From an uncultured Ruminococcus sp. (GTDB lineage: Bacteria; Bacillota; Clostridia; Oscillospirales; Acutalibacteraceae), in the NCBI GenBank assembly GCA_902786345.1, contig CADACB010000010.1:34723-98722 (forward strand): DNA of 64,000 nucleotides, in the 5' to 3' direction. Shown piece after piece: positions 13,228-23,840 of this stretch (positions are counted from its first letter, which is position 1; each line of letters starts with the position of its first letter). A program made the position numbers and the translations under genes. The notes under the pieces are model-generated. The model saw nothing but the letters and a program-made list of their open reading frames with translations, was not told the origin of the DNA and did no database searches.

Positions 13228-13278
13228 TTGCTTTATAAAGCAAACAGCCTTGCAATGCCAGAAAAAATTTGTTATAGT
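13228..13278 (+). promoter_or_regulatory. Candidate TetR-gene promoter with an adjacent 16-bp perfect palindrome (putative operator)
   Basis: TTGCTTTATAAAGCAA at 13228-13243; TTGCAA at 13250-13255; 17-nt spacer; TATAGT at 13273-13278. Confidence 0.45.
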
Positions 13279-13306
13279 AATAACATACCGAAGGGAGTGT
13301 GGCACA

Positions 13307-13876
13307 ATGATTGGGAACGTGCCGAGCCGCAGAACATTAAGAACACAAGCGGCGATTCGCAACGCGTTTGCCGAGCTTTTGACCGAAAAGGAGCTGCACA
13401 AAATTACTGTGCAGGAACTTGCGGACAGAGCCGACGTTGGACGCGCGACGTTTTATAAGCATTATCTTGATATCTACGACCTTTATGAGAAAATTGAGAG
13501 CAATACGCTGACGGAAATTGCCGCGCTTGTGCTGAACACCGGAGAAGAGCCTGTTGAGGATTTCTTCAAAAAACTGCTCGATTACATCTCGAACAACCGG
13601 GCGGTATTCAAAATGATTTTCAGCCCGAACATCACCGCGCAGCTTTATGTCAAGCTGTCAGGAATGATTGAGGGAATGTTCCGCCAGGTGGAGAGCGAGA
13701 AAACCGGACGCAGCGTCGATGACAGGCGGCTTGAATTTATTAACGGCTACCGTGTGCAGGGCTGTATGTCCGTCATTTCAAAATGGGCACAAAATGATTT
13801 CGGCGATTCAACGGAGGATATTCTGAAAACCCTTTTGCTGCTCGACAACAGCATAACAAAGCTTCTGTATACTTAA
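13307..13876 (+). CDS. TetR/AcrR-family transcriptional regulator
   Basis: N-terminal HTH region (RTQAAIRNAFAELLTEKELHKITVQELADRADVGRATFYKHY). ATG at 13307 with GAAGGGAG RBS. The GC-rich sequence begins here. Confidence 0.85.
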   Translation: MIGNVPSRRTLRTQAAIRNAFAELLTEKELHKITVQELADRADVGRATFYKHYLDIYDLYEKIESNTLTEIAALVLNTGEEPVEDFFKKLLDYISNNRAVFKMIFSPNITAQLYVKLSGMIEGMFRQVESEKTGRSVDDRRLEFINGYRVQGCMSVISKWAQNDFGDSTEDILKTLLLLDNSITKLLYT

Positions 13877-13885
13877 TGAAACAAT

Positions 13886-13926
13886 CCCCGTCCGTCACCT
13901 TTTATGGTGCGGGCGGGGTGTTTTCG
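13886..13926. terminator. GC-rich bidirectional terminator between the TetR gene and the cargo gene
   Basis: Stem ccccgtccgtcacc / ggtgcgggcgggg followed by tgttttcgg; it sits between convergent genes. Confidence 0.7.
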
Positions 13927-13944
13927 GTTAGAAGAGACGTATTT

Positions 13945-21083: not shown

Positions 21084-21193
21084 AGTGCCACCCTCGTTAA
21101 GAAAGTATAGGTTTGAAATTATTATAACAAAAGCCAAAAAATAATGCAATAAAAGCCCGACAACCGCCGGGCTTTTATTTGTGAATATCCGTA

Positions 21194-21493
21194 TCATTTT
21201 TCTATTGTCAATATGTTATTTAAGCCTGTCATTGTCATGATCTTCTCAACGTTTGAATTCAATCCTTTTAAAACTACTCCGCCCTTATTTGCTAATTCCT
21301 GTTGTACAAATACAAGAACTCTAAGCCCGGCTGAAGAAATGTATTCCACGCTGCTGAAATCAAAAATCATTTTATCGCAGCCGGAAAGATTTACTTTTAC
21401 CTCTTTTTCGAGATCGGGAGCGGTGAGCGTGTCAATTCTGCCATCAATAACAAGTGTACACTTATTTCCTGTTTTTGTTGATGAAACCTTCAT
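21194..21493 (-). CDS. STAS-domain protein (anti-sigma-factor antagonist, SpoIIAA/RsbV-like)
   Basis: 99 aa with DFSSVEYISSAGLRVL, carrying the conserved phosphorylatable Ser position. It is the first gene of the minus-strand export operon. Confidence 0.85.
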   Translation of the reverse strand: MKVSSTKTGNKCTLVIDGRIDTLTAPDLEKEVKVNLSGCDKMIFDFSSVEYISSAGLRVLVFVQQELANKGGVVLKGLNSNVEKIMTMTGLNNILTIEK

Positions 21494-21660
21494 ATGTTGT
21501 TCCCCTATTCTATTTTTTTATTATTATAGCATAATAATAAGCTGTTGTCATTATTTCCCGGGCAATTTTTCATAAATCCGCGTAAAATCCACCTCTGTAG
21601 TTAGTGACATTTTTTTTATTATGATGTATAATAGTTTAAAAACCATAAGGAAGTACGAAC

Positions 21661-23625
21661 ATGAAGCTCTCTATATTCAAAAAGGTCGCCCTTTGGCTTT
21701 TGATTATCATAGGCACTGTCGAAGCCGCCATGATGATTGCCTTATACAGCTACACCTACAATAACGCTGTTAATAAGGCAACCTCCGATATTAAGGAGGC
21801 TGCAAGGTTTGCCGCAAACCAATTAACCTTCTTTAACCCGGAGACCTTTGCAGTTGAATCTAATGAGGAAAGTATTATCATCTCTCAGTTGGACAGCGGC
21901 TGCAATCAATACGATATAGACAAAATTTATCTTCTGTTACCCGATTTGCGAAATAACACAGTTATGTATCTTGAAAGAGGTATCAACGCTAAAGAAGAGG
22001 CAAAACCAAATACCCATTCTATTGATGATTTAACAGGCAATTATGTTGAGGGCGGTATGACCGCTGAAATGAAAAAGGCATTTTTGGGCGACGACAGCGG
22101 TGTTACCGCACATATTCAAAACGAAAAAGAAGATATGCTCGTTTGCTATATGCCCGTCATAAATTATGCGGACAGTAAACACATGCCAAAAATCGGTGCG
22201 CTAATAAGCGCTGAAATTTCCATTTCCGGAGTTATGGAAGATATAAACGCACAATTCCGTGACTTTGCTATAATTATGTTTATTGTAACGATAACAGTAG
22301 GTATTTCCGCTGCTGTTATCCTGTATTTTATGGTGACAAAGCCGCTGAAATTTATCAGCAGCAAAATGAAGGGCTTTGTTTCCGACCGTAATGCAGCGTT
22401 TAAAAAGCTTCCTGTTAAGGGCAGCGATGAGCTTGCGTTAATGTCGGCTTCCTTTAACACCATGGTTGAAGAAATCGACCGCTATATTGACGATGAGACC
22501 GAACTGAACCGCCAAAAATCCGAGCTGAATATCGCTCAATCCATTCAGATCGGTCTTCTGGAGCCACAAGCCTTCAAAAATGACGACGTTACCGTAAAGG
22601 CTTCGCTGAAAACGGCAAAGATTGTTGGCGGTGATTTGTATGATTATCATGTGCTCCCAAACGGCAATGTTTTTGTTGCGGTTGCAGATGTTTCGGGCAA
22701 GGGTATCACAGCCGCCTTGTTTATGTCGCGAGCGTTAACGCTTTTAAATCAATATGCTGAGCTGGGATATTCCCCCGCAAAAATGCTTTTTGAATACAAC
22801 AACAATCTTGCCGGACATAATCCGAATTTGATGTTTATCACCACCTTCGCTGCCGTTTATAACCCGAAAACAAAAGAACTAATCTATTCCAACGCGGGTC
22901 ATAACTATCCATATATTCTCTCGGATAAACTGATAACGCTTAACGAAAAAAGCGGACTTATAGCAGGAGTGTTTGCGAATTCACAATATCCTGAATACAA
23001 AATTCAGATGAAAGCAGGAGACAAGCTGTTTCTGTTTACCGATGGCGTAACGGAAGCACAAAATAAAGAGGGAGAATTTTTCGGAGAAGAAATGCTTGAA
23101 AAGGTTTTGCTCAGTCATATAGATTATGATGGGATAGATTTGATGAACGCTGTAACAGAAAAAATCAACGCCTTTGCACAGGGTGCAGAACAAGCAGATG
23201 ATATTACAATGCTGGTGCTCCAAATCAATTACAATAAAGCAAAGAAACTTCGTTTGGAAGCAAAAACAGACAATTTAGAAAAAATCACTCAACTCATTTC
23301 CGAGTTGGATGTTTCTGACGATGTCCGTTATCAGCTCAATATTATCTCTGAAGAGGTGTTTGTTAACATCTGCTCCTACGCCTATCCTGAAAAAGACGGA
23401 GAAATCGACTTTACTCTTGTACCCAAGGACGACAAAATTGTGATAATTTTTGAAGACAGCGGTATCCCATTTAATCCAGGAAAAAATCGTATCAATATTG
23501 ACGAATATAAAACACATCCAACCGTCGGCGGATTGGGCAGACACATTGTTTTTTCGAGTGTGGATGATTATTCCTACGAACGCAAACAAAATAAAAATGT
23601 TTTAACGCTAATAATAAACACTTAG
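21661..23625 (+). CDS. Membrane sensor with HAMP, a PP2C (SpoIIE/RsbU-type) phosphatase and an RsbW-like HATPase kinase domain
   Basis: 654 aa with two TM segments flanking an extracytoplasmic region of about 180 aa and a HAMP-like linker. PP2C motifs GGDLYD, VADVSGKG, FTDGVTEA and DDITMLVL. The C-terminal part has EEVFVNICSYAY, DSGIPFNP and GGLGRHIV. Confidence 0.85.
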   Translation: MKLSIFKKVALWLLIIIGTVEAAMMIALYSYTYNNAVNKATSDIKEAARFAANQLTFFNPETFAVESNEESIIISQLDSGCNQYDIDKIYLLLPDLRNNTVMYLERGINAKEEAKPNTHSIDDLTGNYVEGGMTAEMKKAFLGDDSGVTAHIQNEKEDMLVCYMPVINYADSKHMPKIGALISAEISISGVMEDINAQFRDFAIIMFIVTITVGISAAVILYFMVTKPLKFISSKMKGFVSDRNAAFKKLPVKGSDELALMSASFNTMVEEIDRYIDDETELNRQKSELNIAQSIQIGLLEPQAFKNDDVTVKASLKTAKIVGGDLYDYHVLPNGNVFVAVADVSGKGITAALFMSRALTLLNQYAELGYSPAKMLFEYNNNLAGHNPNLMFITTFAAVYNPKTKELIYSNAGHNYPYILSDKLITLNEKSGLIAGVFANSQYPEYKIQMKAGDKLFLFTDGVTEAQNKEGEFFGEEMLEKVLLSHIDYDGIDLMNAVTEKINAFAQGAEQADDITMLVLQINYNKAKKLRLEAKTDNLEKITQLISELDVSDDVRYQLNIISEEVFVNICSYAYPEKDGEIDFTLVPKDDKIVIIFEDSGIPFNPGKNRINIDEYKTHPTVGGLGRHIVFSSVDDYSYERKQNKNVLTLIINT

Positions 23626-23774
23626 GGATAAACCGTGCGTGTAATGATACCGTCCTCTTCCATCGAGCGAAGGCTATCTGTCAGCACCTTTTGGCTAATA
23701 CCGTCAAGACTCTTTTTCAGTTAATTAAAACGCCAAGGTCTTTGAAGCAGATTGCGTAGAATCAGCAGCTTTTC
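23626..23774 (-). pseudogene. Decayed HxlR-family (MarR-like wHTH) regulator fragment
   Basis: The minus strand reads EKLLILRNLLQRPWRFN*LKKSLDGISQKVLTDSLRSMEEDGIITRTVY. There is an in-frame TAA at 23721-23723 where HxlR proteins have Glu, and both ends are missing. It abuts the stop of the preceding gene. Confidence 0.6.
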
Positions 23775-23840
23775 AGCAGCTTGCAGTCATTCTTTGTAAG
23801 CCGTTTGACGACGATAGGCCCTACGGTGTGATAACGTAAA

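Follow-up and report, generated by a model that had tools for sequence, protein, structure and literature searches.

The DNA analysed here is a stretch of 64,000 nucleotides (nt) from contig CADACB010000010.1 (positions 34,723 to 98,722; GenBank assembly GCA_902786345.1, an uncultured Ruminococcus sp.), which we refer to as the window. Between nifSU (11299-12995) and an HD hydrolase/DUF436/ispH-S1 operon (23841-27041) it carries a three-gene export cassette beside a gene for a 714-residue protein that begins with a double-glycine leader. We propose, with moderate confidence, that five of the genes at this site make up a foreign module of ~7.9 kb, in which an exporter of the PCAT type (ATP-binding cassette (ABC) transporters that contain a peptidase) serves a ~70-kDa toxin-like secreted protein bearing a composite export signal and is accompanied by a TetR regulator. 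NCBI assembly GCA_045539915.1 and numerous contigs from rumen metagenomes carry the identical locus, and related loci were found in metagenome-assembled genomes of uncultured rumen Ruminococcus, Oscillospiraceae, and Clostridiales. Where they need to be told apart, these loci are cited by L numbers and their proteins by P numbers.

Gene content of the locus

A preliminary description of this DNA had listed seven intact genes at 13.2-23.8 kb, and open reading frame (ORF) calls together with Pfam and NCBIfam matches confirmed both the genes and the domains assigned to them (Table 1). It was also borne out that the genes at 13-24 kb include no modifying enzyme, integrase, or transposase. The assignment of the exporter to the three-gene cassettes of the NHLP/Nif11 type is supported by NCBIfam matches and by Haft 2010 (PMC2887384), and the protein-sized cargo with its double-glycine leader was recognized correctly as well. 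The feature that the preliminary description lacked, a predicted Sec-type signal peptide behind the leader, is the most unusual feature of the locus.

Table 1. Genes and sequence features at the locus, in window coordinates.
Feature	Position	Strand	Remarks
Intrinsic terminator after nifU	13028-13062	+	14-bp stem and T run; left edge of foreign segment
TetR-family regulator, 189 amino acids (aa)	13307-13876	+	PF00440, PF14278; convergent with cargo gene
GC-rich hairpin CCCCGTCCGTCACC-TTTTAT-GGTGCGGGCGGGG, then TGTTTT	13886-13918		Between convergent TetR and cargo genes; not in the terminator-scan list, read from the sequence
Cargo, 714-aa protein	13945-16089	-	GG at residues 51-52; no Pfam or NCBIfam match
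Signal-peptide-like segment of cargo, residues 53-79, KGFIPALLASIMVLSSASAIAPVPVSA/AETN	15853-15933	-	Predicted signal peptidase I site after A79
Double-glycine leader of cargo, residues 1-52	15934-16089	-	Predicted C39 cleavage after G51-G52
Cargo promoter region and operator-like palindromes TGTCTAcaaaTAGACA	16169-16269	-	26-nt imperfect inverted repeat at 16212-16269
ABC2, half-transporter without peptidase, 731 aa	16269-18464	-	TIGR03797 best model
ABC1, C39-peptidase ABC exporter, 726 aa	18476-20656	-	TIGR03796, PF03412; C39 domain, transmembrane domain, nucleotide-binding domain
Mini adaptor, 140 aa	20661-21083	-	Partial TIGR03794; 4 nt upstream of ABC1
Strong intrinsic terminator between STAS and adaptor	21148-21179	-	14-bp stem, 6 GC pairs, T tract; right edge of foreign segment
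STAS protein, anti-sigma-antagonist type, 99 aa	21194-21493	-	PF01740, TIGR00377
Membrane sensor HAMP-PP2C(SpoIIE)-RsbW-like kinase (HATPase_c_2) fusion, 654 aa	21661-23625	+	PF07228, PF13581
Decayed regulator fragment, presumably HxlR-type	23626-23838	-	Frame ...GISQKVLTDSLRSMEEDGIITRTVYP broken by stops

The exporter: ABC1, ABC2, and a mini adaptor

ABC1 matched TIGR03796 over model positions 1-709 of 710 (E = 4e-254) with 845.0 bits, just under the curated cutoff of 853.3, and its second-best NCBIfam model was TIGR01846 (HlyB, 364 bits). The catalytic set of its C39 domain (PF03412, E = 1.7e-31) is intact, comprising Q22, C28, H102, and D118 with a His-to-Asp spacing of 16 residues. ABC2 matched TIGR03797 over positions 26-685 of 686 with 645.9 bits (cutoff 709.4), and a BLASTP comparison of its N-terminal ~175 residues with the ABC1 C39 domain found no match. 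PF00664 and PF00005 are present in both proteins; all nucleotide-binding motifs were found in ABC1, while ABC2 has an intact Walker A, Walker B with its Glu, and H-loop, and the signature ISGGQ. Judging from the presence of two genes, ABC1 and ABC2 presumably form a heterodimer with a single peptidase domain.

The third component had been described as an HlyD-like stub. It is not a decayed HlyD and represents a conserved family, nearly all of whose 29 homologues are ~140 aa long. It matched TIGR03794 only over positions 1-60 of 421 (E = 2.5e-7; 29.9 bits, with the cutoff at 156.2). An AlphaFold2 (AF2) model with a predicted local distance difference test score (pLDDT) of 79.6 places a helix at residues 30-53 and strands at 56-131; the protein as modelled would have a short cytoplasmic N-terminus, one transmembrane helix, and a small extracytoplasmic beta-barrel. 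A Foldseek search with this model returned no membrane-fusion protein among its hits, the best of which were generic small beta-barrels. In view of the partial hidden Markov model (HMM) match, the length of 140 aa, and the lack of a fusion-protein fold hit, we rejected the adaptor as a full HlyD-like member of TIGR03794. We also rejected a 178-aa ORF for the adaptor as an over-call. The start lies at 21083, because the terminator at 21148-21179 falls inside the longer ORF, ahead of this position, and because the homologues are ~140 aa. For annotation, the 140-aa adaptor should be treated as a real family and not as a pseudogene.

A double-glycine leader followed by a signal-peptide-like segment

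The large cargos of this locus and its relatives begin with an acidic, helical leader of ~52 residues that ends in V(-4)xGG and is followed by a hydrophobic stretch of ~20 residues and a small-x-small motif. In the window the leader ends ...DIEIPDEMLAEVTGG, with V at -4, L at -7, and I at -12, and the hydrophobic positions are kept in seven of seven aligned leaders. Leaders of PCAT substrates are likewise hydrophobic at -7 and -12. The role of the hydrophobic residue at -4 has been documented for PCAT leaders (PMC6959990).

Across the predicted cleavage sites (slashes), the window protein reads ...EVTGG/KGFIPALLASIMVLSSASAIAPVPVSA/AETN. The segment consists of K53, the hydrophobic FIPALLASIMVLSSASAIAPV, and V77-S78-A79/A80, and it is internal, starting after residue 52. 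Position by position, it can be aligned with the Sec signal peptides at the N-termini of homologues that have no leader (MKKTNNIKTRIIAGLLSTVTAFSVGVIAISSASA/AETN). The AxA-type motif after the hydrophobic core occurs in the variants VSA/AE, ASA/AE, and VYA/AS. Directly after GG stands K or R in all seven aligned large cargos, and in all listed leader-bearing members of family A except P0108, which has V. The same hydrophobic segment follows GG in cargos that resemble cholesterol-dependent cytolysins (CDCs; see below). Among ~128 members of the cargo family, at least 78 have a signal peptide only and ~11 have a leader plus signal peptide. K53-A79 is a predicted Sec-type signal peptide, and both the GG site and the signal peptidase I site are putative cleavage sites read from these motifs.

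The leader itself appears to be of a shortened, Nif11-derived type. The 64-residue leader of P0115 matched TIGR03798 (leader_Nif11) over positions 9-68 at E = 1.1e-5, which is below the cutoff, while the window leader gave no hit to TIGR03798 or PF07862 even at E <= 10. With both HMMs failing on the window leader and only the longer P0115 leader giving a sub-threshold match, we rejected the former as a bona fide Nif11 leader. No further leader-bearing genes were found in the window.

A different N-terminus was seen in leaderless P0098, P0100, P0102, P0126, P0184, and others, in which a Thr/Asn-rich extension of 20-30 residues (for example MKTTNTTNRTNTENTTTRTTAIKEGKTMKNTK...) precedes the signal peptide. 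Either the start was mis-called in these proteins, or their N-terminal extension is of a different type.

Recurrence of the cassette

The preliminary description had proposed that all seven genes work together and that neighbourhood searches would show whether the combination recurs. A part of it does. The recurring unit comprises the adaptor, the C39-peptidase ABC exporter, and ABC2 immediately upstream of a gene whose product of 600-990 aa starts with the same leader, and a TetR gene often accompanies them; the STAS and PP2C-kinase genes do not belong to it. Neighbourhoods of adaptor homologues and a scan of species representatives both brought up this unit, which was present in the metagenome contigs L001-3 and L010-13 and in L017-22 and L025, with amino acid identities to the window proteins of 58-65% for the adaptor, 72-81% for ABC1, and 69-79% for ABC2. 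A convergent TetR gene follows the cargo gene in 6 of 10 distinct cassette contexts. In a scan of species representatives, for which an alignment of five leaders served as the query, seven GTDB species representatives, all rumen Clostridia, had the cassette beside such a gene (L017-L022 and L025). Mobility genes adjoin several homologous cassettes (a serine recombinase and a PD-(D/E)XK transposase in L018, a resolvase in L001, and an integrase in L010), which fits a mobile module.

At L010 (989-9972), and also at L011, L012, L015, and L016, a classical cluster for a peptide made on ribosomes and modified after translation (RiPP) lies directly upstream of the large-cargo cassette. These clusters encode a Fic protein, three to four Nif11-type precursors of 82-92 aa with Cys-rich cores (GG/CCVSCSCTDS-like), a radical SAM enzyme, a 159-aa mini adaptor, and their own C39-ABC/ABC pair. 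The RiPP cassette of L010 has four Cys-rich precursors of 82-87 aa, a radical SAM enzyme, a 159-aa adaptor, and two ABC transporters; the two precursors that were scanned matched TIGR03798 at E = 2e-6 and 6e-3. Its ABC transporters are only 47% and 39% identical to ABC1 and ABC2 of the window, and the large-cargo cassettes therefore constitute a lineage of their own.

Two further arrangements were noted among the relatives. In L015 and L016 (9302-10437) the C39-ABC gene that follows the 140-aa adaptor gene is fragmented, ABC2 and the leader-bearing cargo gene are gone, and a gene for a Sec-type SH3_3 repeat protein comes next; this is a decaying copy of the cassette. L005 (542-4271) encodes P0017, a leader-bearing member of the cargo family that ends in ChW repeats and is a cassette “orphan”, with no exporter within 4.5 kb upstream. 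Two genes come before it, one encoding a peptidase_C1/lectin protein of 976 aa and the other a Big_3-dockerin protein.

Coupled loss of exporter and leader in a relative

The strongest available evidence for a connection between leader and exporter came from a relative in which both are missing. L007/L008 is colinear with the window at 79-87% DNA identity, with two gaps. At the aa level its TetR and STAS are 88% and 83% identical to those of the window, and the part of the cargo that both possess is 78% identical. The first removes the segment corresponding to window 21195-16287, that is, the adaptor, ABC1, and ABC2, and leaves the last ~18 nt of ABC2. Because of this remnant, L007/L008 represents a deletion and not an empty site. 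The second gap removes, in frame, 29 leader codons including those for GG. The cargo that remains starts with a lysine-rich n-region (MKSFTANEMMNTKTEKKKTKTNGKRFIPSLL...) and the signal peptide, so that its N-terminus resembles a normal signal peptide. That the exporter and the leader were lost together suggests that the two are functionally coupled. The retention of the hydrophobic segment indicates that it can act as a signal peptide. The leaderless loci that we examined (two, L007/L008 and L009) have a TetR gene and no ABC cassette.

In L007 (2694-4304) the TetR gene is followed by genes for a SCIFF peptide and its radical SAM maturase in place of nifU, and the left flank of the module is therefore lineage-dependent.

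The cargo family and the cargos of sister cassettes

The family of the window cargo is small. A search of 1.84 billion proteins gave 19 close homologues and 114 clusters at 50% identity, and no Pfam or NCBIfam hit pointed to a function. In its AF2 model (pLDDT 75.5) a helical bundle at residues ~106-368 is followed by a beta-rich region at ~375-540 and by C-terminal aromatic helical repeats at ~545-713. The only Pfam domains in distant family members were accessory surface domains; ChW, Listeria-Bacteroides repeats, and fn3 occur among these members and the sister cargos.

The cargos of sister cassettes fall into two groups. Those of L017-19 are distant members of the window cargo family and end in ChW repeats. 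Those of L010, L013, L020, L021, L024, and L025 are Thiol_cytolysin proteins (CDC domains D1-D3; E = 1e-45 to 1e-51), with or without ChW repeats. CDC domain 4 gave no Pfam hit in these rumen CDC-like cargos, and Thiol_cytolysin (PF01289) gave no hit in the window cargo. Two unrelated families, toxin-like or surface-targeted, thus occur in the same export context. By analogy, the mature window cargo is probably a membrane-damaging or surface-targeting toxin-like factor.

The C-terminus of the window cargo (13945-14454, residues ~546-714) consists of aromatic helical repeats of ~17 residues (DYxxWKxxFPxxD-like), which are very regular in P0014 and have no Pfam match. The G+C content at third codon positions (GC3) of this region is 0.43, compared to 0.57-0.59 in the rest of the gene. 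The repeats sit where sister cargos have ChW repeats, which suggests module swapping.

Composition and boundaries of the foreign segment

The window consists of low-GC DNA (~0.38 GC in ORFs outside the block). The preliminary description had judged the DNA from 13.2 to 23.8 kb to be a GC-enriched island, citing two GC-rich strings that lie at 13430-13450 and 13906-13920. The enrichment is real and far beyond chance; it is, however, confined to ~13.2-21.1 kb. Compared to the 47 flanking ORFs (GC3 0.320 +/- 0.039), only TetR (0.586), the cargo (0.543), ABC2 (0.557), ABC1 (0.487), and the mini adaptor (0.482) are elevated, by 4 to 7 standard deviations. STAS (0.350), PP2C-kinase (0.423), and HD (0.287) are on the host-like side. 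Tetranucleotide distances in 4-kb windows gave the same picture, with z = 6 to 9.6 inside 13-21 kb, a maximum of 2.5 outside, and a host-like 0.9 for the window at 21-25 kb. From both profiles we conclude that the foreign segment comprises TetR, cargo, ABC2, ABC1, and adaptor, without STAS and PP2C-kinase. It is flanked by two strong intrinsic terminators (Table 1), and on the left GC3 jumps from 0.395 in nifU to 0.586 in TetR across an AT-rich spacer (12996-13303, GC 0.286). A scan of 12.5-24.5 kb with Rfam yielded only chance matches to terminator hairpins.

A simple insertion between nifU and HD, as originally suggested, does not describe the history of the site. There are relatives with cmk-plsC-ispH-DUF436-HD that are without the block and also without nifSU beside HD. 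Among 80 metagenome loci with an HD homologue (68-83% identity) no clean empty nifU/HD site was found, and nifU was never beside HD. The genes beyond HD in distant relatives are recJ-relA-dtd (read from translations), a glycosyltransferase gene followed by nusG-rplK, or ligA; in L041, L047, L050, and L076 they were never PP2C-kinase, the cassette, or nifU. The string cmk-plsC-plsC-ispH/S1-DUF436-HD is kept across relatives, and synteny stops directly after HD. As the continuation is lineage-specific, the block stands at a synteny breakpoint.

Between the PP2C-kinase and HD genes lies the decayed regulator fragment (...RFN-stop-LKKSLDGISQKVLTDSLRSMEEDGIITRTVYP), which, going by its motifs, is presumably of the HxlR family. 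Its GC of 0.45 is above the host intergenic level, and the remnant suggests a past rearrangement at the right-hand breakpoint.

Transcription units and a candidate TetR target

The gaps between adaptor and ABC1 (4 nt) and between ABC1 and ABC2 (11 nt) are short. From this layout the three genes are predicted to form an operon, with the cargo gene separately promoted. A promoter-like sequence, TTGAAA-17-TACTAT with an extended -10, lies at 16197-16169 ahead of the cargo gene. Of the 13 TGTCTA/TAGACA hexamers in the window, three fall within ~45 nt in this region, and the palindromes at 16169-16269 are candidate TetR operators. The promoter region is 82% conserved in L007/L008, which retain TetR. 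A TetR_C_8 regulator also occurs beside cargo homologues with either type of signal and from either family of cargos (L006, L007, L009, L010-12, L020, L021, and L025). The GC-rich hairpin between the convergent TetR and cargo genes is, by its sequence, probably a bidirectional terminator.

In the 5' untranslated region of the cargo gene (16090-16168; L008 485-596) a hairpin, CAGGGAACGGAAAACAACCCTG, is identical in L008 within surroundings that are 82% identical. It had no Rfam match.

Possible routes of export

For the module that we propose, the data show the gene content, the intact catalytic motifs, the recurrence of the unit, the composite signal, the coupled loss, and the composition; the cleavage sites, the translocation route, the TetR target, and the toxin function are inferred. 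The 52-residue Nif11-derived leader would dock the cargo on the C39 domain of ABC1, and this domain would cut after Gly51-Gly52. The ABC1/ABC2 pair would then use ATP to thread the unfolded ~70-kDa chain through the membrane. The new N-terminus, the hydrophobic K53-A79, may be held in the membrane as an N-in anchor until signal peptidase I cuts after A79 and frees mature A80-K714. With the palindromes at 16212-16269 as its target, TetR would repress the cargo promoter. The CDC-like pore-forming toxins of sister cassettes would be carried by the same leader, signal peptide, and exporter.

Several observations weigh against this interpretation. The cavity of PCAT1 measures ~15,000 cubic angstroms and fits approximately one 66-residue cargo (PMC6959990). 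Threading of a 660-residue chain would therefore call for a processive, HlyB-like mode, which is not known from any PCAT. Nor is it evident what a complete Sec-type signal peptide would be kept for if the ABC pair carried out translocation by itself. The scores of ABC1, ABC2, and the adaptor are all under the NCBI curated cutoffs, and no cassette lies in the available upstream sequence (3.5-10 kb) of the leader-bearing genes of L005, L023, and L024. With respect to toxin function, no immunity gene was found. Foldseek of the cargo model against PDB gave nothing below E = 0.08, and the top hits, the toxins Vip3, Cry, and AhlB with TM <= 0.15, are a hint and not evidence; below E = 0.1, the one hit of a profile search against PDB sequences was a 32-residue stretch of a designed protein, without a passing domain. 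The term toxin-like draws on the analogy with sister cassettes and on their shared C-terminal ChW modules. As for the foreign origin, neither mobility genes, tRNA genes, nor flanking direct repeats were found in the window. Third-codon-position identity to the related locus L121 is uniform, at 0.66-0.67 over STAS, adaptor, and ABC1. Finally, the whole block is present, without polymorphism, in every same-species contig that reaches far enough past STAS (L031-34 and L037). Because it is fixed in the contigs of the species and common to sister lineages, the module is not a recent insertion.

The main alternative, which accounts for the signal peptide, is that the leader gates export by Sec. The acidic leader would mask the signal peptide and keep the protein cytoplasmic, the C39 domain would unmask K53 and the hydrophobic core, Sec would move the chain, and signal peptidase I would finish the process; the role of the ABC pair would be limited to that of a licensing protease, or of an insertase for the N-terminal hairpin. 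A complete signal peptide with an AxA-type site is found in every large cargo and is homologous to those that work in leaderless relatives, and the K or R after GG (except in P0108) would create a positive n-region upon cleavage. In the relative without exporter and leader, the cargo gene is still intact and includes the signal peptide, so that this segment is apparently sufficient for export, and the small PCAT1 cavity (PMC6959990) favors Sec as well. On the other hand, two full ABC half-transporters with intact transmembrane domains and ATPase motifs, as well as an adaptor, are conserved at 58-81% identity across species, which would be needless for a mere protease. In addition, the related ABC exporters of type I secretion, the HlyB family, are established to thread very large unfolded proteins. 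We regard Sec export under control of the leader as possible and rather unlikely.

It is very unlikely that the hydrophobic segment stays uncleaved and tethers the protein to the membrane as an adhesin or wall-associated factor, with no toxin released: the surface modules of distant family members and sister cargos (ChW, Listeria-Bacteroides repeats, fn3), the aromatic repeats in the position of ChW repeats, and the lack of a significant toxin fold match for the cargo would agree with such an anchor, but the AxA-type motif is kept after the hydrophobic core, as in leaderless homologues, and CDC-like cargos must leave the producer membrane to form pores elsewhere (established knowledge; PMC11169675).

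Threading by the ABC pair and unmasking for Sec can both be accommodated in a more general proposal, which we make tentatively and consider plausible. Monoderms may have a two-signal route of secretion that has not been described before. At least two unrelated families of pore-forming or toxin-like proteins (70-100 kDa) may have gained a Nif11-type leader in front of an ancestral Sec signal peptide, and a dedicated heterodimeric PCAT with its 140-aa adaptor would either thread the cargo, ten times the size of any documented for a PCAT, or unmask the signal peptide for Sec.

The STAS and PP2C-kinase genes appear to form a separate unit

The genes to the right of the cassette had been taken for the signalling module of the export system. 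If they were, a membrane signal would set the phosphorylation of STAS through the sensor PP2C-kinase, and STAS would in turn control the exporter or expression of the cargo. The pair does adjoin the cassette in the species of the window and in L121, which runs parallel to the window at 82.6% nt identity from the start of the PP2C-kinase gene through STAS, terminator, and adaptor to ABC1; in L008, STAS is followed by the leaderless cargo gene. The divergence at third positions is, moreover, uniform over STAS and cassette (see above), from which we conclude that the adjacency is old and was inherited within a narrow clade. A sigma factor or other output partner was not seen among the genes at 13-24 kb, the part of the window that was inspected for one, and a non-sigma output would be conceivable.

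These points are outweighed by others. The pair is absent upstream of more distant cassettes, namely at L010-L013, L018, and L022, all of which have upstream DNA. Divergent STAS/PP2C(-kinase) pairs with 69-78% (STAS) and 71-75% (PP2C) identity occur in L027-L030 next to different genes; an unrelated 266-aa gene follows STAS in L029/L030, and L027/L028 show no cassette in the short flank available. The PP2C-kinase (PF07228 at 2.5e-48, PF13581 at 3.5e-13, and a weak HAMP match) belongs to a huge fusion family, generic in Clostridia, with 6296 homologues at E <= 1e-20. A terminator with a 14-bp stem, kept in L008 and L121, separates STAS from the adaptor, and the pair is host-like in composition, unlike the cassette. 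Shared ancestry explains its position beside the cassette in three closely related lineages. Control of the exporter by this pair is, in our view, highly doubtful, and the claim that the system has a signalling module of its own is not supported. The STAS and PP2C-kinase genes appear to be a resident, independently transcribed partner-switching unit and not a component of the module.

We rejected the idea that STAS and the adaptor are transcribed together by way of the ATGA overlap in the 178-aa ORF, as the internal terminator and the 140-aa homologues speak against it.

The only other case seen of a PP2C-kinase beside such leaders is L026 (2-7462, uncultured Firmicutes). This locus encodes a reductase resembling those of nonribosomal peptide synthetases (PP-binding and NAD_binding_4), a soluble PP2C-kinase fusion, four small proteins of 114-133 aa with Nif11-like GG leaders and no hydrophobic segment, and a split radical SAM/SPASM enzyme. 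The soluble PP2C-kinase near Nif11-like small precursors would favor a signalling role for the pair, and the case is too weak to alter our conclusion.

Relation to known systems

Taken singly, the three-gene cassette, PCATs, CDC-like toxins, and partner switching have been described before (PMC2887384, PMC6959990, PMC6363468, PMC11169675). The two ABC families of the NHLP/Nif11 cassettes (PMC2887384) are the best full-length matches of ABC1 and ABC2, and with these cassettes the locus shares the order adaptor/C39-ABC/ABC, a leader that appears to be of Nif11 type, and a substrate gene adjoining the cassette. In contrast to these cassettes, the substrate has 714 aa (600-990 in sisters) and is not a precursor of 60-120 aa, there is no modifying enzyme, the adaptor has 140 aa compared to the 421 positions of the HlyD-like model TIGR03794, a predicted signal peptide stands behind the leader, and the transport proteins fall below curated cutoffs. 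PCAT1 of Clostridium thermocellum, ComA, and LahT (PMC6959990, PMC6363468) have the same C39 catalytic set, GG site with hydrophobic -4, ABC fold, and monoderm host. The PCAT1 substrate CtA has 90 residues with a cargo of 66 (PMC6959990), whereas the cargo here is ~10 times larger and is served by a presumed heterodimer with one peptidase domain and a dedicated mini adaptor.

HlyB was the second-best match of ABC1, and the HlyB family of type I secretion likewise uses an adaptor and threads very large proteins in the unfolded state. HlyB substrates, however, have an uncleaved C-terminal signal, while the signal here is N-terminal and predicted to be cleaved. The C39-like domain of HlyB is catalytically dead, and HlyB needs a full-length HlyD and TolC in diderms; the host here belongs to the Clostridia and has no outer membrane. 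Classical CDCs are exported by Sec. The CDC and CDC-like (CDCL) toxins (PMC7527733, PMC11169675) are represented in sister cassettes by cargos with Thiol_cytolysin D1-D3, whereas the window cargo has no CDC domain and the rumen CDC-like cargos have no domain 4 hit and in some cases end in ChW repeats. The CDCLs analysed in PMC11169675 carry signal peptides of the signal peptidase II (SPII) type and act in bacterial antagonism in gut communities.

The STAS and PP2C-kinase genes correspond to the components of partner-switching systems (RsbU/RsbV/RsbW, SpoIIE/SpoIIAA/SpoIIAB, and SypE/SypA), in that a STAS protein, a PP2C phosphatase, and an RsbW-type kinase are present, the latter two fused here in a membrane sensor. 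They differ in that no sigma factor or other output was identified among the genes at 13-24 kb, in that the pair is generic in Clostridia, and in that it has no linkage to the cassette outside a narrow clade.

A further parallel is MAM, a small protein of the gut bacterium Faecalibacterium, which is a relative of the rumen Clostridia considered here. MAM of Faecalibacterium prausnitzii is a non-RiPP protein that has conserved glycines at a putative C39 site and is encoded beside a PCAT (PMC8836110). Export of MAM by the PCAT was only proposed in that study, no signal peptide after the GG site is described there, and MAM is small in comparison with the 714-aa cargo.

Full-text literature searches returned no paper that describes a CDC-family protein with a double-glycine leader and none with a GG leader before a retained signal peptide; no N-terminal double-glycine leader on proteins of 600-990 residues was found either.

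Implications

For annotation, the neighbouring STAS/PP2C-kinase pair should not be counted into such cassettes, and dependence on Sec need not hold for a Thiol_cytolysin protein. Bacteriocin-cluster searches aimed at short precursor peptides would probably miss cargos of 600-990 residues.

PCATs are regarded as transporters for peptides and very small proteins; here, machinery of this kind is linked, in a natural system that recurs, to proteins of 600-990 residues that include CDC-like pore formers. If the ABC pair translocates these proteins, the size limit of the alternating-access picture would be challenged, and PCATs would be mechanistically linked to type I secretion. The composite signal offers an experimental handle on this question, as leaderless Sec-type homologues and a natural deletion of exporter plus leader exist for swaps. 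These data also point to uncultured rumen Clostridia as the source of a class of secreted toxins that are large and possibly antagonistic.

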